Shown one piece after another: positions 6,665-57,928 of a stretch of 64,000 nt of DNA (position 1 is its first letter; every line of letters begins with the position of its first letter). The notes under the pieces are model-generated. The model was not told the DNA's origin. It ran no database searches and worked only from the letters and a program-made list of their open reading frames with translations. Source of the stretch: a phage; assembly GCA_024875585.1 (NCBI GenBank), contig GCA_024875585.1_4107.1; one strand, written 5' to 3'. The translations under genes were made by a program, and so were the position numbers.

Positions 6665-7141
6665 ATGTCCAACGAACTCACATTCACCAATGCACAAAAA
6701 ATAGCAAAAGACATTATCAGGGTTTATAAATTCCTTGCGAATGTTACTGAAGATTTTTTAATTGATAAAAATAAAGTTATTAAGCGAAATGGATACCTTT
6801 CCTTTATGGATGGGTTGCTCTATAGTTCAGATGAGTCAGCTTGTAGTATTAGAGTACTTGATACTGTACCAAGTGGTGATTTTATTTCATACCATTTTCC
6901 AAGTTCAGATAAGTTCAAATACTACAATAGTATTCTCATAGCAGAAGACTTTGATACGATTGTAATTAACACTGAAGAAGAGTTCTTCCAGTACAGTACT
7001 GTGTACCCAGAGAGGATTGTTTTCAGTTCAGTGATTTACACTACCCTTAAAAATGAACTAAATTCCGATAGTGATCATTTCTACTTGGACCTGAATAATA
7101 TCGATTGTATTATTGAGTACATGGAGAAAAATGGTTTATGA
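6665..7141 (+). CDS. family-A protein (EEEFFQYSTVY)
   Basis: 158-aa ORF, motif. Confidence 0.65.
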   Translation: MSNELTFTNAQKIAKDIIRVYKFLANVTEDFLIDKNKVIKRNGYLSFMDGLLYSSDESACSIRVLDTVPSGDFISYHFPSSDKFKYYNSILIAEDFDTIVINTEEEFFQYSTVYPERIVFSSVIYTTLKNELNSDSDHFYLDLNNIDCIIEYMEKNGL

Positions 7142-7641
7142 TTACTACAGAATATGATTACAATAGTGTCCTTGAATTTGCAGAAAATATATATCGTATT
7201 GCAAAGGAGTTCAGAAGTCCTGAGCCGTTTGGTGGTATGTTCGAATACGATGAGTTTAGTTCATCAAAAGGAAGACTTGCATTTACTAATGGTAGAGGTA
7301 ATCAAATCTACACAGAGTACTTTGATGACAATGACTTTCATCACAAAGCCGAATACATTTCATATTGCCCTGGGTCTGATTTGAAGATTCATATTGAAAG
7401 AGATATAGAAAATGTATTTGTTCCATATACTGATTTAGTCTTCATGTCAGAGGAAATGTACTTTCAGGAATCATTGATTCATGATACAAAAGTACTTAAT
7501 ACTATATTATTATATGGTACACTACTTAATCATTACAAATACAATCAAAGATTCTTTTTAGATTTAGTAGTATACCATCAATGTGTGGATTATTTGAATG
7601 CAAAATCAGACAACAATTCAGTACATGACCGATGGTTCTGA
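7138..7641 (+). CDS. family-A protein (EEMYFQESLIHD)
   Basis: 167-aa ORF, ATGA overlap, motif. Confidence 0.65.
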   Translation: MITTEYDYNSVLEFAENIYRIAKEFRSPEPFGGMFEYDEFSSSKGRLAFTNGRGNQIYTEYFDDNDFHHKAEYISYCPGSDLKIHIERDIENVFVPYTDLVFMSEEMYFQESLIHDTKVLNTILLYGTLLNHYKYNQRFFLDLVVYHQCVDYLNAKSDNNSVHDRWF

Positions 7642-7960: not shown

Positions 7961-8357
7961 AATTATGCAACGCTGTCTTATTGACAAATACGGGATATAT
8001 GGATATCGTTTAAGTGCTCCTATTGACAAAAATAAAACAACCTATGTAAGCTATAATGCTGTACAAGGGTTTGATATATTCATTAGTACTAATTATCAAA
8101 TCAAACAAGCTAAAGATGTGTCTATAATGACCCCTGATGAGTTATTTCAGTACAGCTTAGTTCTTCCTACATGTATCGATTTACAACGTCTAGGAGCGAT
8201 ACAGAAGGTTTTACGCGAACATAAAGTACAACCCAATAAAGTCACGCACATTCCAGAAACAATCTTCAAAACTATAGAAGTAGAAACCCCTGATTATATG
8301 TTAAGTGATGATGAATTCTACGAGAAGCACTTCCCTGGTAAAGTTTGGAGAGACTAA
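7944..8357 (+). CDS. family-A-like protein (DELFQYSLVL)
   Basis: 137-aa ORF. Confidence 0.55.
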   Translation: MLEMIKIMQRCLIDKYGIYGYRLSAPIDKNKTTYVSYNAVQGFDIFISTNYQIKQAKDVSIMTPDELFQYSLVLPTCIDLQRLGAIQKVLREHKVQPNKVTHIPETIFKTIEVETPDYMLSDDEFYEKHFPGKVWRD

Positions 8358-8839
8358 TGAACCGAAAGTACAGAGAAACTATGAAGTTCGCTAAGGAGTG
8401 TTTAGAGACATTTGATTTCATTTTCGATAACAAAGACTCACTTGGTCATTACTTCGTAATTACAAAAAAAGAAGATGAGAGATACAAGTGTCAAAGATTA
8501 GGATACAGTATTGAGTTATCCTTAATGAGTGATGGTATGATAAACTCCATATATGAATCTGGTAAGACAGATTACATTTCATTTAGATCATGGAGTGATA
8601 ATATAATGTTCTTGAGTCCTAATGGAAGTAAATATCCATTCATTAATGATTTATCAGAAGAAAGTTACTTTCAAAACAGTTTAATTTATACAGAAAAAGA
8701 ACTCAAAATGTTATTCATAATGTCGTACTTTAAAAAGTACTGTAAATTTAAATCATTATCTTTTGAGATTTCTGCGATGAAAGTATTCATTAAAAATGTA
8801 AAAGAATTAAAGAGGGCTTTTAATGTACATAGAAAATGA
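8357..8839 (+). CDS. family-A protein (EESYFQNSLIY..MSYFKK)
   Basis: ORF; ATG 8357; motif. Confidence 0.6.
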   Translation: MNRKYRETMKFAKECLETFDFIFDNKDSLGHYFVITKKEDERYKCQRLGYSIELSLMSDGMINSIYESGKTDYISFRSWSDNIMFLSPNGSKYPFINDLSEESYFQNSLIYTEKELKMLFIMSYFKKYCKFKSLSFEISAMKVFIKNVKELKRAFNVHRK

Positions 8840-29473: not shown

Positions 29474-30159
29474 TTAAAGATTTAGATAGAATTTTATATG
29501 TACTAAGGGGTGTAATTACATTACATCCACACATCAATCGAATTGAAAGTACATTTCAGTTGGAGTCAAGAGAAACTCAATATTCACATATATCAAATGT
29601 AGTTGGCTCACTTAGTACTGAAGACTCGCCTTACGATATTTGTGTATGTGAAGTACAACCAAGTTCGGATCTTGGATTTGCTATTTTTGATAAAAATCAA
29701 AATCTCATTAGTATGTTTCAGTGCAATAATCCTTTTTGGAAAACATGCCTGTATCCAGAGTGGGCTATGCTTGATCCAACCAAGAGCACCATTAAAGTTT
29801 ATGACTCTAAAAATGATGAAGTCGTTATTGATTTGGATGAGTCAATGTCCGAGGAAGAACACTTTCAGCTAATGATGATGCGTGCTATGCCTGAATACAA
29901 TGCAATGATTAACACTGTGCAATACATTAAGGATACCATGCCATCATTGCGTACACATGAGTTTTGTCATCCGGTATTGTATGAACATTTAGATTTAGAT
30001 TTCAGTACTATTAAATTTAAAGATAGTGTCATTGAGTATATCCAAGAGGTTACTAAATTCGATTTCATTAGTACAATGAATAATAACCCTGAAACAAATT
30101 TCAGACGACAATACAATGAATCTTTGTCTAATGGACGTGATACAAGTTGGTGGAAATAA
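29470..30159 (+). CDS. family-A-like protein (EEEHFQLMMMR)
   Basis: 229-aa ORF. Confidence 0.6.
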   Translation: MIKDLDRILYVLRGVITLHPHINRIESTFQLESRETQYSHISNVVGSLSTEDSPYDICVCEVQPSSDLGFAIFDKNQNLISMFQCNNPFWKTCLYPEWAMLDPTKSTIKVYDSKNDEVVIDLDESMSEEEHFQLMMMRAMPEYNAMINTVQYIKDTMPSLRTHEFCHPVLYEHLDLDFSTIKFKDSVIEYIQEVTKFDFISTMNNNPETNFRRQYNESLSNGRDTSWWK

Positions 30160-30160
30160 T

Positions 30161-30424
30161 ATGAATATTCAAGATAGATTACAATTACTATACACTATTG
30201 AACAGGCTGCTTTTGAACTTGTTAATAAAATCTCCGAAGAACTTCCCAAAGGAACTATAGTTCGTGTACGTGAGAGGGATTATGAATCTGGAGAAATTGA
30301 AGAACTAGTACTGACCGTGAATAAAGTAACATACTATGAATCTGAGTTGGCTATCCAATGTAGATCGGAAGATGGTAAAATATACTATTATGACACTGGT
30401 GTAGATATAGAGGTAATAAAATGA
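30161..30424 (+). CDS. family-B small protein
   Basis: ORF; ATG 30161. Confidence 0.5.
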   Translation: MNIQDRLQLLYTIEQAAFELVNKISEELPKGTIVRVRERDYESGEIEELVLTVNKVTYYESELAIQCRSEDGKIYYYDTGVDIEVIK

Positions 30425-31563
30425 CCCTTTTGCAAATATATGAAGATTTAATGCACTTGTGCAATACAAACGATGCGTTCTTTTATGTGGATCATAAAAG
30501 TCCTGCTGGTGGAACGTATCGTGTATTCAGTTATCGTCTAGCATCATATACTGATTTCATGCAACCCAATGCATTAGAAACCCGTGGATCTATGTGGGAA
30601 ATTGATGAAGAAGGTAATATGATTCGTTGTGCTGCTCGTACTATGAAAAAGTTCTTTAATGCTTACGAGAATCCTGCTACAATGTTCCCTGCTAACACCA
30701 CATGCGATGACATTGCAGTAGTGATGCCTAAATTGGATGGTTCAGTGATCAGTACTTACCGTGACAATGATGGTGAGATTCGTTGTAAATCACATACTGC
30801 ATTGTATTCTGACCATGCGATTAACAGTACTCGACTTATTAACGAGAACCAGAATCTATATCAGTACATCGATGAAGCTGAACGTTTAGGTTACACAGTT
30901 AATATGGAGTATACAAGCCCAGAGTACCGAATTGTATTACCGTATCAGGTAGAACAATTGTTTGTGCTGAACGTTCGTCATCGTGTAAGTGGTGAGTTGC
31001 TATGTGGTAAAGCATTACGTGATAAGTTTCCATGTCTTTCACAGTACAGCACTAATATGACAGGAAAAGATATTCATCACACTTTTCCTGTGCGAAATTC
31101 ATTCCGTGAAAGCGTTGATGAAGTTCATAAAATGCTTGACATTGAGGGTTTTGTTTGCATTTTAAAAGATGGGACAATGTGTAAAATAAAGACTGACTGG
31201 TACAGTTCATTACATCTTACAAAAGATAGTATTATTATTGATTCTCATTTATATGAAGCTGTATTAAATGGTTCAAGTGATGATTTAAAACAATTGTTCA
31301 GTTCTGACGAATATGCTATGCAAAAGATATTAAGAATGGAACAGTTGGTTTTTTCGTGCTATAATGCATTACAAGATGAAGTAGAAAGCTTCGTCAATGA
31401 ACACAAGCACTTAGAGCGAAAGGAATTCGCATTGAAGGTTCAGACGTGCTTATCTAGTGAACTGAATCGTCAGGGCTTGGCATTTGCAATGTATAATAAT
31501 AAGAAAGTTGATTACAAAGATACACTTATCAAATACATGAAAATTATACTAAAAGATTTTTAG
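30421..31563 (+). CDS. rnlA: RNA ligase 1 (T4 gp63/RnlA-like)
   Basis: 380 aa; N-terminal GGTYRVFSY...ALETRG and KxDG adenylation motif (MPKLDGS), laid out as I recall T4 Rnl1. Confidence 0.88.
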   Translation: MTLLQIYEDLMHLCNTNDAFFYVDHKSPAGGTYRVFSYRLASYTDFMQPNALETRGSMWEIDEEGNMIRCAARTMKKFFNAYENPATMFPANTTCDDIAVVMPKLDGSVISTYRDNDGEIRCKSHTALYSDHAINSTRLINENQNLYQYIDEAERLGYTVNMEYTSPEYRIVLPYQVEQLFVLNVRHRVSGELLCGKALRDKFPCLSQYSTNMTGKDIHHTFPVRNSFRESVDEVHKMLDIEGFVCILKDGTMCKIKTDWYSSLHLTKDSIIIDSHLYEAVLNGSSDDLKQLFSSDEYAMQKILRMEQLVFSCYNALQDEVESFVNEHKHLERKEFALKVQTCLSSELNRQGLAFAMYNNKKVDYKDTLIKYMKIILKDF

Positions 31564-31593
31564 TACTAACTAGCCTAAGCACAAGGAGAAGTG

Positions 31594-31848
31594 ATGGCTA
31601 AACCTAAGTATAAAAATGACGGTTCCCTTTCTCCAACTGAGTTCAGGAAAATACAACAAGAAATCGATGAATTACAGCACAAACGCTCAATGAAAGGTGT
31701 GAAGATAAGTAAGAAGAGAATCGAGAATACTTTCGGATGTAGTAGTACTGAATATAAGAAGAAAAGGAAACCGAAGGGTGTTAAGCCGAGAATACATGAT
31801 GTAACTCGCTATACATCAAAACGTGAAAATAAATTTGATCCACTATAA
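31594..31848 (+). CDS. small basic protein
   Basis: 84-aa Lys/Arg-rich ORF with AAGGAG RBS. Confidence 0.5.
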   Translation: MAKPKYKNDGSLSPTEFRKIQQEIDELQHKRSMKGVKISKKRIENTFGCSSTEYKKKRKPKGVKPRIHDVTRYTSKRENKFDPL

Positions 31849-31857
31849 GGAGTTCAT

Positions 31858-32088
31858 ATGAAAGTTGAAGTTCAGCATAGTATTGTTCAAGATATGTCTG
31901 TAGTTAAATTTCTTTCATTAAAAGATTACTTTAGATGTATCAAGTTCCTAGAAGAATCTCATTTAAAATGGACTCCATTAAAGTACAGTTCATCCAAAGA
32001 CACTGCTAGTATTCGTTGTGATGAAGCTGTACTCGTAAAAATCTCTAAAAGATTTGGGATAGGTAAAGTGAATGAGCACAGTAAATGA
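31858..32088 (+). CDS. hypothetical small protein
   Basis: 76-aa ORF. Confidence 0.5.
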   Translation: MKVEVQHSIVQDMSVVKFLSLKDYFRCIKFLEESHLKWTPLKYSSSKDTASIRCDEAVLVKISKRFGIGKVNEHSK

Positions 32089-32326
32089 ACTAAAATACTA
32101 CAACAAAATTGCGGATACGTTTATTACTCATTTATATGAAGAATTCAGTAGTATCCGCAAGGAATATACAGGTAAATGTATTTTATATAGTTCTTATCTT
32201 AGTGGAAGAATTGAACGTGCTTACATTACTAAAGTGAAGTTTTCTGATGATTATCAATTACTATTTGAATTGGATGATTGTTTAGTCATTGAAGCTGATT
32301 TAATAGTAGATGTGCTGAACAATTGA
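32072..32326 (+). CDS. hypothetical small protein
   Basis: 84-aa ORF. Confidence 0.5.
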   Translation: MSTVNELKYYNKIADTFITHLYEEFSSIRKEYTGKCILYSSYLSGRIERAYITKVKFSDDYQLLFELDDCLVIEADLIVDVLNN

Positions 32327-32332
32327 GGACAT

Positions 32333-32647
32333 ATGAATAAAGAACTTGCATATAAGGGTATCGAAAAGCTAAAGTTCGTTGAAAAGGAACTAATAGAATC
32401 AGTTGAAACAATGGTTGAAGATTACGTTTTTGATTTTAAGAAAACATTAATTGGATGTAAAGTCAAATGCTGGGATCATACCATTAGAGAATGGTTCAGT
32501 GCTATAATTCTTGATGTTAAAGTATCTCGAACTGGTATTGGTAACTTAGTAAATGGTGAATGCTTTGTATACACTGAATACAATAACGGTACAAGACACC
32601 TTTCAAAAGGATGGCACAATCTCGAAGATGTAGAATTCATTGAGTAA
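32333..32647 (+). CDS. family-B small protein (LIGCKVKC)
   Basis: 104-aa ORF. Confidence 0.5.
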   Translation: MNKELAYKGIEKLKFVEKELIESVETMVEDYVFDFKKTLIGCKVKCWDHTIREWFSAIILDVKVSRTGIGNLVNGECFVYTEYNNGTRHLSKGWHNLEDVEFIE

Positions 32648-44592: not shown

Positions 44593-45117
44593 ATGAAATA
44601 TACACACCTAAGTATAGATGATACTAATATCTGGTTAGATAACATAATCAAGACATTAGAATTAATTAAGCTTACATTACAGAAATCAATTGATATTGAA
44701 ACTAATATTAAACACGAAATATTAAATTATTATCACAAAAACAAATATTGTAAGTTTTTCTCTAAATTAATTTATGGATTATATGATAGTGAAGATATTT
44801 GTATCGGTTACAGTACTGGTATTTGCTTTACAATTAATGGTCTTATGAATGATTTAAATTTCCGTCTTTCAGAAGAACAGCGAAATTTTCGTCTATTTTG
44901 TAAGGATATTATGGATGAAGATGAAATATCATTTGTTGTTGAATTGAATAGAACATGGTCTACATATGCAGATAAACCATTTGAAATCAATGAAACCGAT
45001 GTGTTAAACTATTTTCGAGTTATGAAAATTCATGATTTGTGTAAAAACGCATTGTTAAGTATTGGAGCTTATAATGAAACATACGACTTGGTTGAAGATA
45101 GCAGAAGTAGTTGCTGA
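44593..45117 (+). CDS. hypothetical protein
   Basis: 174-aa ORF. Confidence 0.55.
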   Translation: MKYTHLSIDDTNIWLDNIIKTLELIKLTLQKSIDIETNIKHEILNYYHKNKYCKFFSKLIYGLYDSEDICIGYSTGICFTINGLMNDLNFRLSEEQRNFRLFCKDIMDEDEISFVVELNRTWSTYADKPFEINETDVLNYFRVMKIHDLCKNALLSIGAYNETYDLVEDSRSSC

Positions 45118-45553
45118 AGAAAGTAAATGTATTTCACAAAAAGTTGGTTGTGTTATTGTTAAAAATAATCGAGTATTGAGTACTGGATATAACGGTACAC
45201 CATCAAAGCAACCTAACTGTTGTGATGTTAATAAACATCTCGTAAACAATGGTCAATTTCAAAATTGGATTGATGACGATGCTAAACACTTACATCACGA
45301 GTGGAGTAATATTCATGAGATCCATGCAGAAATGAATGCATTACTATATAGTTCACCACAAGAACGTCAAGGTGCAACACTTTACACCACACTCCAACCG
45401 TGCTATACTTGTTCTAAGTTAATTGCCGGTAGTGGTATTTCTCGTGTAATTTACGAAAAATCGTATCGTCGTACTCCACCAGAAGCTATTAAAGTACTGG
45501 AAGATGCTGGAATTATTGTTAATTGCATTTATGATAAGGGTCTTGATAAATGA
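45074..45553 (+). CDS. cd: dCMP deaminase
   Basis: zinc-binding HAEMNAL and PCYTCSKL motifs of the dCMP deaminase family; GGAG RBS. Confidence 0.85.
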   Translation: MKHTTWLKIAEVVAEESKCISQKVGCVIVKNNRVLSTGYNGTPSKQPNCCDVNKHLVNNGQFQNWIDDDAKHLHHEWSNIHEIHAEMNALLYSSPQERQGATLYTTLQPCYTCSKLIAGSGISRVIYEKSYRRTPPEAIKVLEDAGIIVNCIYDKGLDK

Positions 45554-45807
45554 CAGTAATAATTATTATTGCTTTTCTAATAACAGTGTTTTTTATTTTT
45601 ATGTTATATATAGTTGCTATGGATGAACCTAATAGTTCTTTTAGAAATTATGAAGTTCGTTTTTCTGCACAAAATAATAAGTACTATATTGTAAACTGTG
45701 TACATTGTAGTGAGAAAAAGGTAACTGGTAGGTTTGGGTTTACAATTTATTATAAAGATCGAGTAGAAGCTGATATGGTTTGTCAAAAACTTAACACAGT
45801 AGAATAA
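45550..45807 (+). CDS. small protein with N-terminal TM helix
   Basis: 85-aa ORF, ATGA overlap with cd. Confidence 0.5.
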   Translation: MTVIIIIAFLITVFFIFMLYIVAMDEPNSSFRNYEVRFSAQNNKYYIVNCVHCSEKKVTGRFGFTIYYKDRVEADMVCQKLNTVE

Positions 45808-45836
45808 AAAAAGGAGCCGCATGGCTCCTTTTTTAT
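45805..45836. terminator. bidirectional rho-independent terminator
   Basis: AAAAAAA - hairpin aggagcc-gcat-ggctcct - TTTTTT; sits between convergent plus and minus transcription units. Confidence 0.8.
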
Positions 45837-46073
45837 GTTTTTACGTAAGATGTATAGATCATTATGTAATTTGATTTTGTTAATCATATACATAGTACAA
45901 AAACCTTCAACATCTGCTTTTTCATCTTTCAATTTAATGAAGAAAGTATCATCTCTTAGACTTTCATCTGAATTTTCGATACTATCAATAGAAAAAGGAA
46001 GTCTTCCGGTTAATGTAATTATTCTTCTCTAAGGAAAGTGCATGATAATTATCATGCACTATATTATTAAAAA

Positions 46074-48746
46074 TTACGCACTGATTGTTACAGTTGCAGT
46101 ATCTTTTTTATTACCATCCACAGTAGTCACTGTAATGATTACAGAACCTTCTTCTAGAGCAGTTACTAATCCATCATCACTAATAGATACTTTAGTAGGT
46201 TCATCTGCACTATAAGTTACTGATTTGTTAGTTGCTTTAGCTGGAAGAACTTCAGGAACTAGTTGAACTGTTTTAGTTCCTGATAGTGAAAGTTCAGTAG
46301 TTTTAGGTGTTAAACTAACACTGGATACTGGAACTGGAATATTAACGATTACTGATGTTTGACCAGTAACATCACTACCATCAGCGGCAGTAGCGATAAT
46401 ATTTGCAGTACCATTAGTTAGTGCAGTTACGATACCAGTATTAGCATCTACTTTAGCAATTTCTGGAGCACTGGATGACCAAATTACTTTTTTATTGGTT
46501 GCATTACTTGGGGTAATTGCAGCAGTCATCTGTTTAGTTGCATTCAATGTAGTCAAAGTTTGATCTTTAGGAGTTACATCAATTGCAGTTACTGGCACTG
46601 GAATATTAACAGTAATAACACCTTGACCTGTTTTACCACTTCCATCAGCAGCAGTTGCGATAATGTTTGCAGAACCGTTAGTTAACGCAGTTACAACACC
46701 AGTACTAGCATCTACTTTCGCTACAGCAGGTTTACTGGAAGACCATGTTACAGATTTATTTGTTGCGTTAGTTGGAAGAACTTCAGCAGCCATTGCTTGA
46801 GTTGCGTTAACAGCAGTCAATGTTTTAGTTGCTGGAGTAACATTAATAGATGCGACTGGAACTGGAATTGCTACAGTTACCGCACATTTTGCAGTTTTTG
46901 CTCCATCAGCAGTTGTTACTGTGATATCAGCAGTGCCATTTGCTACAGCAGTGATTAAACCAGTTGGACTAACAGTTGCCACTCCATCAGCAGAAGTACT
47001 ATAAGTTACTGCTTTGTTGGTAGCATTAGGTGGTAGTACAGTTGGTGTTAGTTGTTGAGTATCACCGACTGAAGTTAATTTAGCACTTGTTGGAGATACT
47101 GATACACTTGCAACAGGAACTGGAATATTAACATTTACCACGCAAACTTTAGTAAATCCACCATCAGATGTGGTTGCTGTAATATTTGCAGTACCGTTTG
47201 CAACAGCAGTGATTAAACCAGTTGGACTTACCGTTGCGACACCCTCAGCAGAAGTAGTGTATGAAATATCTTTACGACGAGCGTTATCTGGAATAACAGA
47301 TGCAGTTAGTTGTTGAGTAGCACCTACAGAAGTTAGGGTTGCTGTCAACGGAGTCATATTAATACCAGTTACTGGGATCGTTACATCAATCACTGATTCA
47401 GCAGTTTTAGCACCATCATCAGTGGTAACAGTAATAGTTGTAGTACCGTTATCAACCGAAGTTACTAGACCAGTATTGCTAACTTTTGCCACGTCTGGAT
47501 ATGAAGAAACATATGAAACTGCTTTATTGGATGCAGTTGTAGGAGCAACGGTTGTTTCTAATTGTTTAGTATCACCTAATGTTGAGAATGTATAAGTACT
47601 AGGAGTCATAGTGACACCAGATACAGGTGTTTTCACAGTGATAGTAGTAGTATCAGTTTTAGCACCATCTTCGGTTGTTGCTGTAATCACCACTGTACCG
47701 TTAGCAACACCAGTTACTAGACCAGAAGTAGGGTTAACAGTTGCTATATCAGGTGTTGCTGAAGACCACGTGACGTTTTTATTAGTTGCATCATCAGGAG
47801 ATATTGTAGCAGTTAATTGTTGAGTACCGCCAACGTTAATTGTTGCAGTTTTAGGAGAAACAACAACACCACTAACTGGAGTTGTTACAGTAACAGTACA
47901 TTTTGAAACAAATATGCCATCAACAGTAGTTGCAATTACATCAGTACTACCATCTGCAACACCAGTTACCATACCAGATGGACTTACAGTTGCGACGCGT
48001 GGTATACTAGATAACCAATTAACACGTTTATCACTTGCATCATCGGGTGATACGGTAGCTGTTAGTTGTTGAGTTTTACCAACACTAAGAGATAGAGTTG
48101 AAGGAGAAACAACAACACCACTAACTGGAGTTGTTACGGTAAATGCACAAACATCAGTGAAACCACCATCATGAGTAGTAACTGTTACATTTGCGTTACC
48201 ATTAGCACGGGCAATTGCTAAACCAGTTTGAGCATCAACTTCAACAATTGTTGGAGCAGAGGAACTATAACTTACTGTTTTATCATTTGCATAATCTGGA
48301 TCAATTGTAGCTGATAGCTGTTGTGTACTACCAACTTTAAGTGCTACTACTTTAGGTGAAATAATTACACCATCAACTGGAGTAGTATAATCACGTTTAA
48401 CCACACGACCATTGTTCAATTTAATAATACGACCCATATAAAGAGTAGTATATCCTTTACTAATCCCATCATCTACATAAATCATGAATGAATTGTCTTG
48501 AACCATATTAATTGCGTCTACTGGTTTAACGGAATTTGGAATGTCGATACCACGGGTATCATACCAACACATGGAAACTTTGTAATAGATATCACCATTA
48601 TCATTTATGAGATCATAAACGTTACTGGAACGTTGACGGTTAATATATAAAGTTTCGGTTAACACCTTACCATCGATTTTAGCGACAGAAACTTTAATAC
48701 CACCAATACCAAATGGCAATTTACCTTCACTAGATATTGCTTTCAT
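46074..48746 (-). CDS. Ig-like (Big_2) repeat virion surface protein, Hoc-like or adhesin-like
   Basis: 890 aa; unique N-terminal ~120 aa followed by about nine ~85-aa repeats (VSGVVVSP...TQQLTAT..PDDA..K.V.WSS...ATV...GLVTGVANGT); only long minus-strand gene; AAGGA RBS. Confidence 0.7.
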   Translation of the reverse strand: MKAISSEGKLPFGIGGIKVSVAKIDGKVLTETLYINRQRSSNVYDLINDNGDIYYKVSMCWYDTRGIDIPNSVKPVDAINMVQDNSFMIYVDDGISKGYTTLYMGRIIKLNNGRVVKRDYTTPVDGVIISPKVVALKVGSTQQLSATIDPDYANDKTVSYSSSAPTIVEVDAQTGLAIARANGNANVTVTTHDGGFTDVCAFTVTTPVSGVVVSPSTLSLSVGKTQQLTATVSPDDASDKRVNWLSSIPRVATVSPSGMVTGVADGSTDVIATTVDGIFVSKCTVTVTTPVSGVVVSPKTATINVGGTQQLTATISPDDATNKNVTWSSATPDIATVNPTSGLVTGVANGTVVITATTEDGAKTDTTTITVKTPVSGVTMTPSTYTFSTLGDTKQLETTVAPTTASNKAVSYVSSYPDVAKVSNTGLVTSVDNGTTTITVTTDDGAKTAESVIDVTIPVTGINMTPLTATLTSVGATQQLTASVIPDNARRKDISYTTSAEGVATVSPTGLITAVANGTANITATTSDGGFTKVCVVNVNIPVPVASVSVSPTSAKLTSVGDTQQLTPTVLPPNATNKAVTYSTSADGVATVSPTGLITAVANGTADITVTTADGAKTAKCAVTVAIPVPVASINVTPATKTLTAVNATQAMAAEVLPTNATNKSVTWSSSKPAVAKVDASTGVVTALTNGSANIIATAADGSGKTGQGVITVNIPVPVTAIDVTPKDQTLTTLNATKQMTAAITPSNATNKKVIWSSSAPEIAKVDANTGIVTALTNGTANIIATAADGSDVTGQTSVIVNIPVPVSSVSLTPKTTELSLSGTKTVQLVPEVLPAKATNKSVTYSADEPTKVSISDDGLVTALEEGSVIITVTTVDGNKKDTATVTISA
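46150..48400 (-). repeat. tandem ~250-270-bp coding repeats (Ig-like domain units)
   Basis: recurring DNA blocks such as actggaactggaat...gcagtaccatt within the Big_2 gene. Confidence 0.6.
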
Positions 48747-48782
48747 ATACTTTCCTTTATAAATTGTATTGTATTGTTATAT

Positions 48783-48790
48783 TATTTATA
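48783..48790 (-). promoter_or_regulatory. T4-type late promoter TATAAATA
   Basis: exact TATAAATA on the minus strand about 40 nt upstream of the Big_2 start codon. Confidence 0.55.
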
Positions 48791-49058
48791 TTATAACAAA
48801 ATTATTTTAGTATTAAAAAGGAGTTCTAATGTTCCTTTATATTTTAAAGGAACATACTGTGTAAATCTGGTTTGGTCAGGTAAATCTTTCGGAGAGAAGG
48901 AAGTAGTGAATGACATTTTATCATTAAAATCATCTCCTTACCTTTAAAATAGAATTGTAAACTGCCTCCTAATATGATACCATAGTTCAAATGGTAAATC
49001 AATGAACTTAACAAAAAAAACACTTGATACTACAGTCATAATTGTTCAGTTTTTGTGC

Positions 49059-49087
49059 TTGACATAATTAATCAATTATTGTACTAT
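49059..49087 (+). promoter_or_regulatory. sigma70-type promoter TTGACA-N17-TACTAT
   Basis: in the divergent intergenic region upstream of ORF 49123. Confidence 0.5.
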
Positions 49088-49122
49088 TAATAATGTTCCT
49101 TAACTCAAATCCGAGGTAATTA

Positions 49123-49728
49123 ATGAAACGATTATTGAAAGAGATTATACAAACCGTTGTTATAATTGCTGCATTAAACTTTCCAGCGGCGGCAGAAGTT
49201 TCAAAAAAAGCATCTGTTTTTCTATTAAATGATCATGTTGGGTCAATTGATGGTGAACTAAATGATAAAACTGTACAAGATGTGGAGCAGTTGTGGAAAG
49301 AAAAAAAATTTAAAATTTTAACAATTACATCACCTGGGGGTGATTTTGATGCTGGTATTAAAATGGGAAATTTTGTTAGAGACAATGGTATAAATTTAAT
49401 TGTTTCTAGATATTGCAATTCAGCATGTACTGTGGTATTCTTTAGTGTGTCCCCTGAAAAACGATATATGACAAATCAATCAGTACTGGGATTACATAAC
49501 ATTTCAATCAAAAGTAACGTTAGAGATAGGGATAATACTTTTGTATCTGTTAGACAATTATCAACATTTACTGAAGAAATGGCAACAAAAGTAGGATTTT
49601 TATTTACACTATATTCAGCTAATGGAATTCCACCTAGCGTTCTATATAGAGTTAGTCGTGCACGTGGTGAAGATGTTGTTATCTTAACAAAAAAAGACCT
49701 AATTCATTACGGTTCGGTAAATCCATAA
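49123..49728 (+). CDS. secreted ClpP/crotonase-fold protein (putative periplasmic protease)
   Basis: N-terminal signal-peptide-like segment (VVIIAALNFPAAAEV); TSPGGDFDAG resembles the ClpP/SppA GG motif. Confidence 0.4.
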   Translation: MKRLLKEIIQTVVIIAALNFPAAAEVSKKASVFLLNDHVGSIDGELNDKTVQDVEQLWKEKKFKILTITSPGGDFDAGIKMGNFVRDNGINLIVSRYCNSACTVVFFSVSPEKRYMTNQSVLGLHNISIKSNVRDRDNTFVSVRQLSTFTEEMATKVGFLFTLYSANGIPPSVLYRVSRARGEDVVILTKKDLIHYGSVNP

Positions 49729-49796
49729 AAATAATTATAATAACAGGATGATTATGTTGTTCTTCCTTTGTTATTAACTATATCGGAAATATAACT

Positions 49797-50057
49797 ATGA
49801 CAAACATCCAGAATTTGACGTCTATTATTTTTTATGCTACAGTGGTGATGTATGCTATTGTACTTATTTTAACAGTTTTTATTTACAAAGATTACAAAAA
49901 AGGCTTTATTAATAGTACAACAATGAAGTTCAATTCTAAATTTGAAGCAATTATATTTTATGTTTTGACAACATCATATTTGTTGTGTATAATGTTACTA
50001 GGGTCATTGATTTATATTTTATATACAACATTATTTGCAATTGGAGCTATTTTATGA
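49797..50057 (+). CDS. small membrane protein (3 predicted TM)
   Basis: 86-aa hydrophobic ORF. Confidence 0.45.
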   Translation: MTNIQNLTSIIFYATVVMYAIVLILTVFIYKDYKKGFINSTTMKFNSKFEAIIFYVLTTSYLLCIMLLGSLIYILYTTLFAIGAIL

Positions 50058-50650
50058 CATGTATTATTGCACACACTGATGGTGTAACTTCATTTATTGC
50101 AGGGGACAAGATGGGGAGTGATGGTTTTACGAAATCAATCCAAACAGAGCCTAAAGTGTTTGAGAAAGAATTTGTAAAGATTAGTGGTGATGACGGCTTG
50201 ACTCGTACAAAAGATGTTATGACAATTGGATTCACTACATCATTTCGTATGGGTCAACTGCTAACTTATAATTTAAATTTACCAGACCAAAATTCAAATG
50301 AGACGTTTCTACAGTATTTAGTACTGAAAGTTATTCCTCTTATTCGTCAAATGTTTAAAGACGAATGGGGTGCACGTGATACAACCCAAGATGTTGGTGG
50401 TGGTCAATTTATTATTTTACACAATCATACGATTTATGAAATTCAGGAAGATTTTTCGGTTCTCCAGTCAAAATCAAGAGTTGCATCTGTTGGTAGTGGT
50501 ACATATCATGCAATTGCAGCTATGCAAGCATATATTGATCTTGAGAAAGAAACTAACGTACAACTACATGAACGTATCAAATCCATTTTCAAAATTGTTA
50601 GTGATAATGTATCGAGTGTAAGCGAAGAGTTTGATGTATTAAAATATTAA
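50054..50650 (+). CDS. HslV/proteasome-beta-like N-terminal nucleophile hydrolase
   Basis: begins M-T-CIIAHTDGVTSFIAGD (Thr at position 2; cf. HslV TTIVSV..IAGD); later GSGTYHAIAAMQA resembles HslV GSGGPYAQAAA. Confidence 0.5.
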   Translation: MTCIIAHTDGVTSFIAGDKMGSDGFTKSIQTEPKVFEKEFVKISGDDGLTRTKDVMTIGFTTSFRMGQLLTYNLNLPDQNSNETFLQYLVLKVIPLIRQMFKDEWGARDTTQDVGGGQFIILHNHTIYEIQEDFSVLQSKSRVASVGSGTYHAIAAMQAYIDLEKETNVQLHERIKSIFKIVSDNVSSVSEEFDVLKY

Positions 50651-50665
50651 AATTATAAGAGAGAA

Positions 50666-50860
50666 ATGATGGCATACACAATTTATGAATGGATTTTGAG
50701 TTTTATTATAGTATTTTTTATGGTTGTAATTTACAATAATGCTAAATGCTTATATAGAGATTTAAAATCCAATGGTTATCATGCAAACAATAATTTAATG
50801 TATGCCTATCATATTGGAATCATTCTATTATTATCAATATATTTAATTGGTTTTATTTAA
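50666..50860 (+). CDS. small membrane protein (2 TM)
   Basis: 64-aa hydrophobic ORF. Confidence 0.45.
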   Translation: MMAYTIYEWILSFIIVFFMVVIYNNAKCLYRDLKSNGYHANNNLMYAYHIGIILLLSIYLIGFI

Positions 50861-50869
50861 GGATTGCGT

Positions 50870-51622
50870 ATGATATCAGAAAAATTTATAAGTAATGAGG
50901 GAAACAAGAGATTACTTATTATCTCAGGAGCAGGTCTTTCCGTTGAAAGTGGGATGGAGCCATTTCGATTTGATGATGGCTTATGGGATACATTTAAAAT
51001 TAATGACGTATGTAATATTGCAAATTTAGATACAAAATATCATGTTGTTCATTCGTTTTATAACACACTGCGTGTTAAACTGGGTCAATGTGAACCAAAT
51101 GCAATGCATTATTTTATAAAATCCTTAGAGGACCAATATGGTGATTGTTTTCTTCATATGACCTCCAATATGGATGATCTTTATACACGTATTGGTGGCA
51201 AAGAACTAAAACTTCATGGTAATTTATGTGAAGTGATAGAAAATTATAGTATTAATGGTGATGATTATAACATTGTTAACTGTGGTTATGAGCCATATAT
51301 ACCAAAACATGATGTTTTTGCTAAACCAAATGTAGTGATGATTGGTGAATATCACCGTTATGTTGATGGTGTTCGTTTGCCAATATATGAAGAAAGAAAT
51401 AATGTTTTAAAAACACTTAATGAAAACGATACTGTGATTGTTATTGGAAGTAGTGATACAGTACTTGTGTGGTCCAGATTAGCTGCGGCATTACCCTGTT
51501 ATAGCGTTAATGTTAACATTCGTAAAAATGATAATGATTTTCTGTTCAATGAAAAAATTATTCAACCAGCTACCAAAGCAATACCACAATTAGAGACTAT
51601 AATTAAGGAACGTATGAAATGA
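50870..51622 (+). CDS. Sir2-family NAD-dependent deacylase/ADP-ribosyltransferase-like protein
   Basis: sirtuin motifs GAGLSVESGMEPFR, TSNMDDL, LHG, VMIGE, VIGSS; AAGGA RBS. Confidence 0.7.
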   Translation: MISEKFISNEGNKRLLIISGAGLSVESGMEPFRFDDGLWDTFKINDVCNIANLDTKYHVVHSFYNTLRVKLGQCEPNAMHYFIKSLEDQYGDCFLHMTSNMDDLYTRIGGKELKLHGNLCEVIENYSINGDDYNIVNCGYEPYIPKHDVFAKPNVVMIGEYHRYVDGVRLPIYEERNNVLKTLNENDTVIVIGSSDTVLVWSRLAAALPCYSVNVNIRKNDNDFLFNEKIIQPATKAIPQLETIIKERMK

Positions 51623-52170
51623 GTGTTAAAGAAGTTCCCTTTGGTGAATATGGTTCACGTGCCAATTTTGTATTTTGCTATTTCTTTGCAAGAAAATGTA
51701 ACCCTTACGAAAATTACGAATTGAATGATATACCAGAAGTAAATTTAGTATTACTTCAATTACGTTGGGATGGCCTTCTAGGGGGATGTGGTGGGACAGT
51801 TGAAAGTACTGATATCTCACTAGAAGATGCGTTACGTCGTGAAATTCAAGAAGAGATGGATTACAATATTTTTGTTTCCCATCTTCGACCACTTAAAACT
51901 TTTGAAATTTACCCAGGTGCAAACAGTCATAGTTTTAGCTATGAAGTAACCTATGATGAGTTGAAACACATTAGAGATGGATACACTAATGCTAAACATG
52001 CGAGTGCTGAAGTGGCTGGTGTAAATTTATGTCATATTTCTCGTTATTCTAAGGGACAAAATCGAGAAGCGGGATATAATAATCTTATGACTCAGAACTT
52101 CATTGGTACAGCAAAACAAGAATTGGAGTATCTGGTTCAAAAAGAAAACTTACTAATTAGTTATCTATAG
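51619..52170 (+). CDS. Nudix hydrolase
   Basis: Nudix-box-like GG..E...LRREIQEEMD (spacing not fully canonical); ATGA overlap with the Sir2 gene. Confidence 0.55.
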   Translation: MSVKEVPFGEYGSRANFVFCYFFARKCNPYENYELNDIPEVNLVLLQLRWDGLLGGCGGTVESTDISLEDALRREIQEEMDYNIFVSHLRPLKTFEIYPGANSHSFSYEVTYDELKHIRDGYTNAKHASAEVAGVNLCHISRYSKGQNREAGYNNLMTQNFIGTAKQELEYLVQKENLLISYL

Positions 52171-52179
52171 GAGTTTAAC

Positions 52180-52500
52180 ATGTCTTACTCAATGTTTTTG
52201 GATGATATCCGTGATGCAAATCTATATTATCCAAACCAAGATATGGTGGTATGTCGTGACTTTAAAAGTGCATGTGAATATGTTATTGAAAATGGAATTC
52301 CAGCATTTGTATCATTCGACCATGACTTGGGTGATGTGAGCGAAGACGAAAAGACTGGATATTCTTTTGCTAAGTTTCTTATTGATTATATGTTTGATAA
52401 TAATATTAAAGAACCGTTTGAGTACTTTGTTCACAGTAGTAATCCTGTTGGTAAAATTAATATTGAAACATACTTAAACAATGGGTTTAACGCATTATGA
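52180..52500 (+). CDS. hypothetical protein (possible receiver-like fold)
   Basis: 106-aa ORF; acidic DD...SFDHDLGD pattern. Confidence 0.4.
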   Translation: MSYSMFLDDIRDANLYYPNQDMVVCRDFKSACEYVIENGIPAFVSFDHDLGDVSEDEKTGYSFAKFLIDYMFDNNIKEPFEYFVHSSNPVGKINIETYLNNGFNAL

Positions 52501-52799
52501 TTCAAACACACATCAAAAGTCTTATTTGTACTGTTCTGTTAGGTGTAGGTGTTCTTTGGTTCGGATATTATCACGAGAACACTAAGCGTACTAACATTCA
52601 CTACAATACCGCAGAAGTTGTTAGTTTAGGGCAATGTAGTGAGTCAAAATGTGCATTTACGTACAAAACCAGTAATGGTGAAATACGTAATGGACTATCA
52701 AGAGAACCAGTTTCGATTGGTCAACTTGTTTACCAGGAGTGCTGGGAAGAAAAGGTTCGAGGTTCACGTTGCTATGTTGAATACGAACCAAATATGTAA
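52497..52799 (+). CDS. small membrane-anchored protein
   Basis: 100-aa ORF with N-terminal TM helix. Confidence 0.5.
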   Translation: MIQTHIKSLICTVLLGVGVLWFGYYHENTKRTNIHYNTAEVVSLGQCSESKCAFTYKTSNGEIRNGLSREPVSIGQLVYQECWEEKVRGSRCYVEYEPNM

Positions 52800-52859
52800 T
52801 AATCCAAGTCAATAACATTAGTCGAGTACAAGGATGTACTCATAACTCAAGGATGTTTT

Positions 52860-54299
52860 ATGAAAAAATATACAATTGACACAAACGTACTACTATCTGA
52901 TCCAAATGCGTCTGTTGCTTTTGATGGTGCTGCAATCATTCTACCATTTACAGTACTGGAAGAATTGGATTCGATTAAGAGTCGCAATGTTGATGTTTCA
53001 CGTGATGCTCGTGTTGCGATTCGTAACATTGAAGCAATTATTGCAGAGGCATCACATAATGAGATTAGTTGTACTGGTGTTAATATTGCTGATGTTCATA
53101 CCAATATGAATCCTGATAGCAAATTGTTTGTTATTACAACCGAAGAAGCTGAGGCACTAATTCGTACTAAAGGTTCAGACGAGAAAGTTCAAACCCTTCT
53201 TAAAAGTACTGTACCTGATGATAAAATTATTCTGGTAGCTTTAGCAACCGAATCAGTACTGGTAACTCGTGATATCAACATGCGTATCAAAGCACTAAGT
53301 TATGGTGTCGAGGTACAAGACTATCGTCATGATATTGTTATTGGTGATAGTGATTTGATGCACATTGGTCAACATCATTTGGAACTCAATTTTTGGGATG
53401 TATATAGCAATTTAGCAAATACAAATATTAAAACTGAACAAATTGGTCGTCGATTGTATCATTACATTCCTAAAAGCTTGATTGGTCATTTACTTCCACA
53501 AAATCTATGCATTGGTGATTATCTATATGATGATGCTGATGTATTATTTGTATATGAAGGCCAATCAGCCATTGAGGAAGATGATGGCACACTAACACCA
53601 GAAGATATTTTGGTATTCCAAGACATTGGTCAATCTGTAGCTTTGCGTGCTAAAGTATGGGATATTAAAGCAAAGAATATTCAACAAGCACTTGCAATCA
53701 ACAGTATTCTCGATCCTGATGTACACCTAACAGTGCTGCTAGGTTCTGCTGGAACTGGCAAAACATTAATTACGATTGCTACTGCACTAGAGTTAGTACT
53801 GGAAAAACGCAAATACGACCGTATTATCTTCTCTAAAACACAAGATTCACAGTTTGAAGATATAGGATTCTTGCCAGGTTCTGAGACAGAGAAAGTTATC
53901 CCATTCTGTGGACCTGCAATTGATGCTCTTGAGTATCTTCATAAAGATGATGTATCACCACAAGGTAGCATCGAAGAGATTCTCAAACGTAACGTGATGC
54001 AATTTAAAGCATTGAACTTTATTCGTGGTCGTTCTTTTGCCAATACAATTCTAATTGTGGATGAAGCACAGAACTTAACACCAGCCCAGTTAAAAACTGT
54101 CTTGACAAGAGCCGGAGAAAACTGTAAAGTAATCATACTTGGTAACCTAGCACAGATTGATAACAAGTTTATCAGTCCAGTAAACAGTGGTTTGACATAT
54201 GTAACTGAAAAATTCAAGGATTGGAGTGGTTGTCGTATCATTGAATTAGAAGGTGTTGTTCGTTCACCACTTGCTGAATTTGCTGAAGAAAATATGTAA
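52860..54299 (+). CDS. phoH: PhoH-like ATPase with N-terminal PIN domain
   Basis: PIN-like N-terminus (YTIDTNVLLSDP...LEELD); Walker A GSAGTGKT and Walker B IVDEAQN. Confidence 0.85.
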   Translation: MKKYTIDTNVLLSDPNASVAFDGAAIILPFTVLEELDSIKSRNVDVSRDARVAIRNIEAIIAEASHNEISCTGVNIADVHTNMNPDSKLFVITTEEAEALIRTKGSDEKVQTLLKSTVPDDKIILVALATESVLVTRDINMRIKALSYGVEVQDYRHDIVIGDSDLMHIGQHHLELNFWDVYSNLANTNIKTEQIGRRLYHYIPKSLIGHLLPQNLCIGDYLYDDADVLFVYEGQSAIEEDDGTLTPEDILVFQDIGQSVALRAKVWDIKAKNIQQALAINSILDPDVHLTVLLGSAGTGKTLITIATALELVLEKRKYDRIIFSKTQDSQFEDIGFLPGSETEKVIPFCGPAIDALEYLHKDDVSPQGSIEEILKRNVMQFKALNFIRGRSFANTILIVDEAQNLTPAQLKTVLTRAGENCKVIILGNLAQIDNKFISPVNSGLTYVTEKFKDWSGCRIIELEGVVRSPLAEFAEENM

Positions 54300-57527: not shown

Positions 57528-57761
57528 ATGAAAAATATATTCATTACATTAACAATATTTGTATCCATTATTCTCTGTGGTTGTGCTCCTAAAGTTGATG
57601 AGATGGATGCTGAAATCATCCGTCAAGGTTTAACAAAACTAAATCACCAAGGAACACTATACGCATGTCATACTATGCGTCATGGGCAAGATCTTAATCT
57701 CATGTGCAGGAAGATTGTGAACCGCAAACGTCTTAATACTATTCCGAAGGATGCACAATGA
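57528..57761 (+). CDS. small secreted protein or lipoprotein
   Basis: N-terminal hydrophobic segment ending ILCGC. Confidence 0.4.
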   Translation: MKNIFITLTIFVSIILCGCAPKVDEMDAEIIRQGLTKLNHQGTLYACHTMRHGQDLNLMCRKIVNRKRLNTIPKDAQ

Positions 57762-57928
57762 AAGAAGTAATTGGCTACAAATGTAAAAATTGTGGCAAAG
57801 ATATGGGTAAGCATTCAGTACAAGGTATGGCTTGTCCAAATCCAGGACGTGGTAATTTTAGAGGGTTCAGTACTGAAAAGTCTTATGAACCTGATTATTC
57901 AAAACCAGTGATGGGCTATAAGTTATGA
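57758..57928 (+). CDS. small Cys-containing protein (56 aa, CKNC...CPNP)
   Basis: ORF below track cutoff; ATGA overlap with the next gene. Confidence 0.35.
   Translation: MKEVIGYKCKNCGKDMGKHSVQGMACPNPGRGNFRGFSTEKSYEPDYSKPVMGYKL

Follow-up and report, generated by a model that had tools for sequence, protein, structure and literature searches.

A lone minus-strand gene in an Asteriusvirus-like jumbo coliphage probably encodes a late-expressed virion surface protein with nine Ig-like repeats

Background

The window analysed here, a 64-kb stretch of phage DNA, belongs to an Asteriusvirus-like jumbo coliphage of the PBECO4/121Q group and contains a single long gene on its minus strand. This locus raises the question of what such a gene encodes, when in infection it would be expressed and whether its product is part of the virion. 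A sequence-only reading had proposed a late virion decoration or adhesin protein built of Ig-like repeats, and the evidence bearing on this proposal is evaluated below.

Results and discussion

The gene and its conservation

Only one of the 56 ORFs of at least 150 aa in the 64-kb window lies on the minus strand (46074..48746), as the sequence-only reading had noticed, and it is also the sole sizeable minus-strand ORF of the window found outside plus-strand ORFs. It begins with ATG and encodes 890 aa followed by a stop codon. The gene and its parts are the following:

46074..48746, minus strand: coding sequence, putative N-terminal anchor domain followed by nine Big_2 repeats (ORF list, Pfam, ph0011 identity, dN/dS)
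48751..48758, minus strand: Shine-Dalgarno-like AAGGAAAG, ending 4 nt before the ATG (read from the sequence)
48381..48746, minus strand: N-terminal domain, predicted virion-association module (phrog_33171, tblastn, AF2, dN/dS 0.06)
46077..48380, minus strand: nine tandem Big_2 repeats (repeat boundaries, as for R1 to R9)
48129-48380, minus strand: repeat R1
47880-48128, minus strand: repeat R2
47628-47879, minus strand: repeat R3
47376-47627, minus strand: repeat R4
47124-47375, minus strand: repeat R5
46866-47123, minus strand: repeat R6
46602-46865, minus strand: repeat R7
46338-46601, minus strand: repeat R8
46077-46337, minus strand: repeat R9

The 890-aa ORF is intact in two isolates, with phage ph0011 carrying it intact at 95.6% identity. 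In the comparison with ph0011, dN/dS was 0.22 for the whole gene, 0.06 for the N-terminal domain and 0.09 for the distal repeat R9, which is conserved, while R2 and R8 gave values near 1 on very few substitutions. From the intact ORF in two isolates and the low dN/dS, the gene appears to be functional. Its dS against ph0011 is 0.059, versus 0.69 for the neighbouring cd gene. Neither a signal peptide nor a membrane segment could be read in the protein sequence.

The long allele is known only in ph0011 (WAE77065), UE-S1 (UTS53789) and A4, where it is annotated as "hypothetical protein". The papers on these three phages do not mention the long-allele gene, and the gene is not discussed in those on UE-S1 and fEgEco12. 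A single-sequence word-indexed protein search returned only two hits and a profile query 15; an IMG/VR scan with the single protein found no relatives. Elsewhere in the window, we considered whether 22 consecutive ORFs of about 156-200 aa at 1-16.9 kb form one paralogue array, an idea that was rejected as only 4 of 30 tested ORFs (1-24.8 kb) are related.

Ig-like repeats

The protein matches Pfam Big_2 (PF02368) with 451.5 bits against a cut-off of 22.8, in nine matched stretches, and phrog_215 ("structural protein with Ig domain") with an E-value of 5e-205. Nine units of 83-88 aa each could be delimited, together covering aa 123-890, so that the earlier count of about nine Big_2-like repeats is confirmed. 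Solved Big_2-bearing proteins match the repeats by sequence, and AF2, run on aa 1-205, modelled the R1 region entirely as beta-strands (block-mean pLDDT 85-98). Pairwise, the repeats are 34-67% identical in amino-acid sequence and most similar in the adjacent pairs R2/R3, R5/R6 and R7/R8, and TRF reports a period of 264 across R7/R8. Recent tandem duplication was rejected as the origin of the repeats, their DNA identity being only 52-73%.

The number of repeats among relatives is 9, 7, 6, 2, 1 or 0. The differences, also among close relatives, consist of whole in-frame repeats, in agreement with the suggestion that repeat number varies by recombination.

A conserved N-terminal domain family

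The domain preceding the repeats (aa 1-122) had been taken as unique. It belongs instead to a conserved family: over aa 1-113 it matches phrog_33171 ("virion structural protein"; E 9.5e-15), tblastn found it in 55 phage records, and it is 38% identical to PBECO4 gp098 (E 1e-18). The family alignment has eight invariant columns. In nearly all of 56 representative proteins the domain is N-terminal, and in ten representatives that were scanned it is followed by different Ig-type arrays (Big_2, Big_1/Invasin_D3, HYDIN-like). Both ph0011 and UE-S1 have a single family copy, in the long form.

The members found at the cd locus of Rak2-like jumbo phages (CBB_112, RaK2 gp496 = F403_gp039, 121Q gp471, PBECO4 gp098 and phAPEC6 gp347) are 28-38% identical to our protein in this domain, with shared motifs such as KQRS..[FY]DL. 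They carry no repeat (125 aa), one (212-224 aa) or two (301 aa), compared with nine here.

Structure prediction, which had been proposed as a check, gave a confident all-beta model of the N-terminal domain (pLDDT 83, pTM 0.77), with a conserved and predictedly flexible arm in the first 12 aa or so. Searches of the PDB by sequence, profile and fold found no solved homologue or similar fold, the matches to engineered OspA and a cadherin being spurious, and BFVD returned only family members and uncharacterised proteins. Since no known capsid-binding domain resembles it, we infer that this domain is a particle anchor from architecture and homologue mass spectrometry alone.

A probable late promoter of modified T4 type

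The motif TATAAATA begins 44 nt before the ATG, where the sequence-only reading had placed an exact T4-type late motif about 40 nt upstream of the start.

48783..48790, minus strand: late-promoter motif TATAAATA, with the group consensus ATAAATA at 48783-48789 (motif counts, cross-phage spacing)

This is the only copy on both strands of the 64 kb, against 14.6 +/- 3.4 expected. The shorter ATAAATA begins 43 nt before the ATG, which is the modal spacing, and is depleted about 12-fold in the window (4 copies, about 50 expected). A T4-type late promoter is recognised by a TATAAATA-like -10 element that stands a short distance upstream of the gene and lacks a -35 partner, and this arrangement is present at -44/-43. 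The exact 8-mer, the short leader and the avoidance of the motif elsewhere are all shared with the late promoters of T4 (TATAAATA, gp55/gp33/gp45-dependent), whereas the group consensus is without the first T. The exact 8-mer as a genus-wide late promoter was in fact rejected, because 50 kb of phAPEC6 structural genes contain no copy of it, and ATAAATA is the working motif; the leading T lies outside the group motif.

The use of ATAAATA is best seen in the structural region of phAPEC6, where 6 of 10 copies precede a gene on the same strand by 42-85 nt (binomial P 9e-9). The products of four of these six genes, the tail sheath among them, were confirmed in virions by mass spectrometry. The motif precedes phAPEC6 virion genes by 42-57 nt and, in other genera, the orthologous gene by 37-52 nt. 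The genus possesses a gp55-like sigma factor: homologues of CBB_244 listed for Asteriusvirus-type phages are 74-76% identical, and CBB_244, whose C-terminal part is related to cyanophage gp55, matches 33 Escherichia phage records. No gp55-, gp33- or gp45-type gene is located inside the window. The phage is T4-related, as judged from the Gp23-type major capsid protein of CBB and the gp55-like sigma factor of the group; however, the authors of the CBB study did not detect homologues of gp33 and gp45, and the mechanism of late transcription may therefore differ from that of T4. The PA5oct omics paper describes no late motif. Motif depletion, the 43-nt spacing, the position conserved across genera and the sigma factor support the earlier claim of late expression, suggesting that the gene is probably switched on late in infection.

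Hairpins, relics and cassette exchange

Several structures and gene remnants surround the coding sequence:

45807..45834, no strand assigned: bidirectional intrinsic terminator, also left edge of the variable cassette (folding, homology break)
45840..46015, minus strand: pseudogene relic of a short (~124-aa) N-terminal-domain paralogue (tblastn, frame reading, blastn)
46037..46060, minus strand: the gene's own hairpin (folding; largely conserved in A4)
48829..48855, minus strand: AT-rich hairpin upstream of the late promoter (folding, upstream comparison)
48851..48925, minus strand: Big_2 fragment relic of the upstream paralogue, copy 1 (tblastn, frame 2 reading)

The gene had been described as ending at a hairpin shared with the convergent plus-strand unit, which consists of the dCMP deaminase gene and an 85-aa ORF. 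The hairpin is real and bidirectional, with a symmetric GGAGCC/GGCTCC stem between an A-run and a T-run and folding energies of -17.2 kcal/mol (z -5.7) on the minus and -20.7 kcal/mol (z -6.1) on the plus strand, but the stop codon lies 240 nt away. In PBECO4, the stop codon of the short gene abuts the same hairpin. A second hairpin (10 bp, -15.1 kcal/mol, z -4.65, no U-tract) is found on the minus strand 13 nt past the stop; its counterpart in phage A4 lies between the long gene and a short downstream paralogue without a late motif of its own, and it is probably a 3' stabiliser or a leaky terminator. The 10-bp-stem hairpin indicated further upstream, at about 48827-48853, is also there, with 11 bp at about 48829-48855 (-11.8 kcal/mol, z -3.7). 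It is poorly conserved and absent in ph0011; at that spot A4 has a canonical terminator, with which the decayed upstream paralogue ends.

The genomic position is constant, the N-terminal domain being located beside dCMP deaminase in all Rak2-like jumbo phages. In RaK2, CBB, 121Q, PBECO4, Munch, fHe-Yen9-04, BF and EJP2 the family gene is a lone opposite-strand gene beside the dCMP deaminase gene, as is the 890-aa gene, and cd-locus members share the ATAAATA-type motif upstream. Homology to PBECO4/121Q stops at 45834-45839, and the cassette has been exchanged between genomes otherwise about 90% identical. Relatives have up to three tandem anchor-gene paralogues, two of which are decayed relics here. 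The downstream relic (77.6% identity to A4_463 aa 74-122 by tblastn) has lost its start codon and suffered an internal deletion, LTGRLPFSI being joined directly to DS..ESLRDDTFFIKLKDE, with about 180 bp missing compared with A4 by blastn. The upstream relic (72% identity to A4_465 aa 16-40 by tblastn) is preceded by a ribosome binding site with ATG and, according to a promoter scan, by a sigma-70-like promoter at 48974-49002 on the minus strand.

The gene occupies a swappable cassette of about 3.5 kb flanked by the relics of two paralogues, which explains why the shared terminator is reached only 240 nt past the stop codon, behind the hairpin of the gene itself; ancestrally this terminator belongs to the now decayed downstream paralogue. 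The locus as a whole looks like a recombination hot-spot in which whole repeats are gained and lost in register.

Virion presence of homologues and competing explanations

The proposal of a virion decoration or adhesin finds support in published mass spectrometry of homologues with the same N-terminal domain and locus. CBB_112 was detected in purified virions with 4 peptides and 24.3% coverage (PMC5259590), and phAPEC6 gp347 with 8 peptides and 75.2% coverage, the highest in the table, compared with 74.9% for the major head protein and 68.0% for the sheath, sequence coverage being no measure of copy number (PMC7247149). On the basis of these two homologues, the 890-aa protein is predicted to be a virion component. 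For RaK2 gp496, a part in host interaction has only been a matter of speculation by the authors, and the jumbo-capsid paper of Hua 2017 does not mention gp471. In phiKp24, cryo-EM showed an undecorated T=27 capsid consisting solely of the major capsid protein. Two external proteins of the phAPEC6 capsid are unassigned, one of them as numerous as the major capsid protein, and on the phAPEC6 tail cryo-EM showed fibres and, at two levels, further decoration proteins without assignment. Identity with the "hairy" whiskers of CBB and phAPEC6 was rejected, given that those phages carry the 1-repeat or 0-repeat form and that the CBB hairs measure 119 nm.

Taken together, the 890-aa protein is probably a late-expressed surface decoration or adhesin of the virion of this jumbo coliphage. 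Host RNA polymerase with the gp55-like sigma factor would start at ATAAATA late in infection, giving a leader of roughly 30 nt. The all-beta N-terminal domain of about 120 aa, with its flexible arm, would then dock on the assembled particle, as shown for the homologues, and the nine Big_2 domains would form a flexible filament of roughly 35 nm, whose repeats could bind weakly and reversibly to carbohydrates of mucus or the host surface, in the way that has been suggested for T4 Hoc and T5 pb10. The attachment site that we favour is the capsid.

A site on the tail (sheath, tube or collar), for example in the ring-like decorations of phAPEC6 tails, is in our estimate unlikely. Orthologues are named "major tail protein" in RefSeq, but this label derives only from the Big_2 domain; many PHROG hits are likewise tail proteins with Big_2, whereas the N-terminal domain matches no tail protein fold. 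The decoration proteins and fibres of the phAPEC6 tail would accommodate such a placement, while gp347, covered as fully as the major head protein, suits a site of very high copy number, and two external proteins of the capsid await assignment. It is less probable still, and we give it little credence, that the protein is a receptor-binding fibre acting as primary host-range determinant, with cassette exchange retargeting the phage. The swapping of the locus between genomes otherwise about 90% identical, the low dS relative to the cd gene and the conservation of the distal R9 could be read in this way; however, the Ig-like repeats run to the end of the protein, which has no distinct C-terminal domain for receptor binding or trimerisation, the 125-aa repeat-less form is all that most Asteriusvirus members have when they infect E. 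coli, and the group has known tail-fibre genes distinct from this one.

Two observations might even point away from the virion: both flanking paralogues are pseudogene relics, and R2 and R8 have dN/dS near 1, if on very few substitutions. The product could then be an intracellular or secreted accessory protein, or the gene could be drifting to decay behind a fortuitous promoter match. This is very improbable, since two isolates carry the ORF intact, with an overall dN/dS of 0.22, signal peptide and membrane segment are absent, a depleted motif sits at the modal 43-nt spacing in a position conserved across genera, and homologues are found in virions.

Comparison with T5 pb10 and T4 Hoc

In T5 pb10, an N-terminal domain binds the particle and the Ig-like domain behind it is exposed to solvent. 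The 890-aa protein has the same order of modules and the same presumed accessory, non-essential role, but nine Ig-like domains instead of one, and its N-terminal domain shows no sequence similarity to pb10, so that it does not belong to the pb10 family. T4 Hoc is a late, non-essential surface protein of tandem Ig-like domains for which weak glycan adhesion has been proposed. Its capsid-binding domain is C-terminal, whereas the putative anchor is N-terminal here, and it has three Ig-like domains against nine Big_2; nor does Hoc appear among the PDB sequence or fold matches of our protein, which is thus not assigned to the Hoc family. In kind, it is probably an ordinary Hoc/pb10-like late decoration or adhesin protein, a familiar sort of phage adhesin whose anchor domain has no solved relative.

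Conclusions

An anchor domain without a solved relative, together with a repeat-less homologue that is the best covered protein of the phAPEC6 proteome, makes this family a concrete candidate for the unassigned densities in the capsid maps of 121Q and phAPEC6. We suggest, tentatively and as a doubtful proposition, that the family is one of the two external proteins of the T=28 capsid of 121Q/phAPEC6 type, either the inter-capsomer lattice protein or the hexamer-centre anchor; it should be noted that the N-terminal domain is only 38% identical to phAPEC6 gp347 and may not bind the same site. If the suggestion is true, every such site in the long-allele phages (this window, ph0011, UE-S1) would bear a nine-Ig filament of about 35 nm, a head could carry anything from several hundred to more than a thousand of them, and the tandem paralogues, silent relics included, would be a reservoir for surface-allele swapping by recombination.

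The depletion and positional conservation of ATAAATA provide a practical late-gene finder in poorly annotated 350-kb genomes. Ig-like decoration proteins are believed to prolong the stay of phages on host or mucosal surfaces, and they also serve as display platforms. With 0, 6, 7 or 9 Ig-like domains attached to one type of anchor, the genus offers a natural graded series, in which the influence of filament length on adsorption or on adherence to mucus could be measured directly.

Gene context

The Ig-repeat gene had been described from the sequence alone as the only long minus-strand gene of the window, and this description holds: of the 56 ORFs that reach 150 aa, no other is on the minus strand, and no other sizeable minus-strand ORF lies outside the plus-strand ORFs. 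The window has just one further candidate gene on that strand, a 60-aa ORF at 57657-57839 (-), which overlaps no long plus-strand ORF. By megablast, every match to region 45500-49200 came from the PBECO4/121Q (Asteriusvirus) group, either jumbo coliphages or Salmonella phages, ph0011 matching best (95.6% identity across 90% of the query), followed by UE-S1 (93.3%) and A4 (85.2%); in the other 20 records the match is confined to the first ~305-340 nt, on the side of the dCMP deaminase gene (cd).

According to the annotation of relatives, the downstream neighbours at 49123-54299 (+) are a ClpP-like protease, an HslV-like protease, a Sir2-like protein, a Nudix hydrolase and a PhoH-like protein, whose homologue gp341c is also a member of the phAPEC6 virion proteome. 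A promoter with the perfect sigma-70 consensus (TTGACA, 17-nt spacer, TATAAT, 12/12) is found at 49965-49993 (+), within an 86-aa membrane-like ORF; the HslV-like protease gene, by the start annotated in relatives, begins ~60 nt further downstream. Farther away, four ORFs of ~160 aa (74-544, 984-1472, 7138-7641 and 8345-8839, all +) make up a small family of paralogues (blastp E < 1e-5), and the remaining ORFs of the 30 tested by blastp at 1-24.8 kb showed no mutual relationship.

The N-terminal domain

Residues 1-113 match phrog_33171, 'virion structural protein' (125-position profile), and tblastn found the domain in 55 phage records from Escherichia, Klebsiella, Salmonella, Erwinia, Yersinia, Pectobacterium and Serratia jumbo phages; what had been called a unique domain is therefore a conserved module. 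In every genome examined it lies in a lone opposite-strand gene beside the dCMP deaminase gene.

Homologues carrying the N-terminal domain
PBECO4 gp098, 121Q gp471, phAPEC6 gp347: 125 aa, no repeats
RaK2 gp039 (212 aa), CBB_112 (218 aa), Munch (224 aa): one Big_2
BF: 301 aa
fHe-Yen9-04: two tandem genes, 345 and 301 aa
EJP2: two copies

When 1.84 billion representative proteins were scanned exhaustively with HMMER, 56 members emerged (102-1859 aa), and in nearly all of them the domain is N-terminal. Since the Ig-type arrays downstream of it differ among the ten members scanned (Big_2, Big_1/Invasin_D3 or HYDIN-like), the pattern fits a constant anchor with a variable display part.

The AF2 model of the domain, based on a 14-sequence alignment, is confident (pLDDT 83, pTM 0.77) and shows an all-beta fold containing a single short helix; its first ~10 residues come out disordered, yet they are among the most conserved. 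No solved structure resembles the domain: Foldseek against the PDB gave at best a tandem Tudor (E 0.18, TM 0.29), PDB sequence and profile searches gave spurious matches only, and BFVD returned family members, one Atu_ph07 protein and uncultured-phage proteins. Membership of the Hoc or pb10 families was therefore ruled out; with pb10 the likeness is one of architecture, anchor first and Ig-like domain second.

Repeats and their variation

The expected nine or so Big_2-like repeats were recovered (Pfam Big_2, 451.5 bits, nine stretches), with units of 83-88 aa spanning aa 123-890; in an AF2 model of aa 1-205 the first repeat region is all beta-strand (block-mean pLDDT 85-98). Because the repeats share 34-67% protein and 52-73% DNA identity within the gene, they are old, and the most alike are neighbours (R2/R3, R5/R6, R7/R8). 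The suggestion that repeat number could vary is confirmed by the relatives: ph0011 shares all nine repeats, A4 (722 aa) has seven, with an R7-like repeat ahead of an R6-like one, and UE-S1 (633 aa) has six (R1, R3, R4, R5, R7, R9), exactly one member of each similar pair missing, all changes being clean, in-frame and of whole repeats. Against ph0011, on small substitution counts, dN/dS is 0.22 overall, 0.06 in the N-terminal domain, 0.09 in the distal R9 and ~0.9-1.0 in R2 and R8.

Probable late promoter motif

Elements upstream of the Ig-repeat gene
46074..48746 (-): Ig-repeat gene, 890 aa
48783-48790 (-): late-promoter 8-mer TATAAATA, 44 nt before the ATG
between TATAAATA and the ATG (-): Shine-Dalgarno AAGGAAAG, read from the sequence
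41213(-), 48783(-), 54587(+), 63892(+): ATAAATA copies in the window

The sequence-only reading proposed a T4-type late promoter. The exact TATAAATA is indeed there, the single copy in the window versus 14.6 +/- 3.4 expected, but it cannot be the genus consensus, as no copy occurs in the 50-kb structural region of phAPEC6. The MEME motif reported upstream of CBB structural genes is ATAAATA (PMC5259590). In the window it is ~12-fold under-represented (4 copies versus 49.7 +/- 6.9 expected), and ahead of the Ig-repeat gene its spacing is 43 nt. For the three copies besides 48783(-), no placement ahead of a gene is obvious: one is antisense in a 472-aa ORF and two are intergenic.

In the phAPEC6 structural region there are 10 copies versus 26.6 +/- 4.7 expected, six of which precede same-strand genes by 42, 43, 43, 50, 57 and 85 nt (binomial P 9e-9); among these genes are the one for the tail sheath gp277c and those for gp245, gp253 and gp275c, all three confirmed by mass spectrometry. 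A seventh, around 30487, is followed by a Shine-Dalgarno-like GAGGAAA in the unannotated gap 29599-32525 of the stretch examined, so that a late gene was probably overlooked there by annotation. ATAAATA or a 6-of-7 variant stands 37-52 nt upstream of the orthologue in CBB, fHe-Yen9-04, BF, EJP2, Munch and RaK2, in surrounding sequence that differs between them. Among the group's genes is also one for a gp55-like late sigma factor (CBB_244), with 33 matching Escherichia phage records, homologues listed for Asteriusvirus-type phages at 74-76% identity, and a C-terminal part related to cyanophage gp55. From the depletion, spacing and positional recurrence of ATAAATA, together with this sigma factor, late, gp55-type transcription of the Ig-repeat gene is well supported by inference.

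History of the locus

Remnants recognised by comparison with A4
48851-48925 (-): remnant of an upstream Big_2 fragment
~45840-46015 (-): relic of a short copy, start codon lost, with an internal deletion

Homology to PBECO4/121Q ends at 45834-45839, at the bidirectional terminator, and returns at 49321 inside the ClpP-like gene. A4 has three tandem copies, namely an upstream one with an in-frame stop and a Big_2 fragment (A4_466 and A4_465; 5394-5897 of the A4 stretch examined), the long gene A4_464 and the short A4_463. Gene comparison thus presents the Ig-repeat locus as a cassette with decayed paralogues. A4_466/A4_465 and 121Q gp472 (43 aa; 2873-3004 of the 121Q stretch examined) are annotated as separate CDSs; they are pieces of a paralogue, now decayed, of the gene for the virion N-terminal domain.

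The hairpins at 45807-45834, 46037-46060 and ~48829-48855 each fold significantly better than shuffled sequence, the last being the upstream hairpin noted previously. The hairpin proposed as a shared bidirectional terminator (45807-45834) is real, but since the short downstream paralogue has decayed, the gene's own 3' element is the previously unnoticed hairpin at 46037-46060, in which a U-tract is lacking. The short gene of PBECO4 has its stop codon directly against the terminator, which in the window is a legacy of the lost downstream paralogue. In the comparison with ph0011, dS is 0.059 for the Ig-repeat gene versus 0.69 for the adjacent cd (45074-45553), which indicates a mosaic junction and a recent exchange of the cassette.

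Probable virion location and function

Purified CBB virions yielded 4 unique peptides of CBB_112 (24.3% coverage; PMC5259590). The repeat-less gp347, at the same locus in phAPEC6, was found with 8 peptides and 75.2% coverage, the highest among 62 listed virion proteins (major head protein 74.9%, sheath 68.0%; PMC7247149); the N-terminal domain alone, per this homologue, therefore suffices for incorporation. Two external capsid proteins of phAPEC6 have no gene assignment, one a lattice protein in copies equal to the major capsid protein and the other a fibre anchor at hexamer centres, and the tail decorations likewise have no assigned protein (PMC7247149).

We consider a late virion decoration or adhesin protein the probable product. 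Its N-terminal domain would anchor it to the virion and its nine Ig-like domains, at roughly 4 nm each, would form a flexible filament of ~35 nm, whose contacts with carbohydrates would be weak, in the manner proposed for Hoc and pb10. Attachment to the tail instead of the capsid is rather unlikely. A primary receptor-binding or host-range fibre is a good deal less likely still, and a non-virion protein or a decaying gene, set beside the virion detections of homologues and the overall dN/dS, is the most improbable reading. The 119-nm whiskers of CBB and phAPEC6 are not explained by this gene, since the form found in these two phages has just one repeat or none.

Ig-like domains are well known from phage virion proteins, and in relatives this family has already been annotated and seen by mass spectrometry. 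Three deposited genomes carry the long allele under the label 'hypothetical protein', and the papers describing them do not discuss it. What is new here is the recognition of the anchor module, which has no solved fold relative, the graded repeat series, the history of paralogues and cassette, and the ATAAATA rule.
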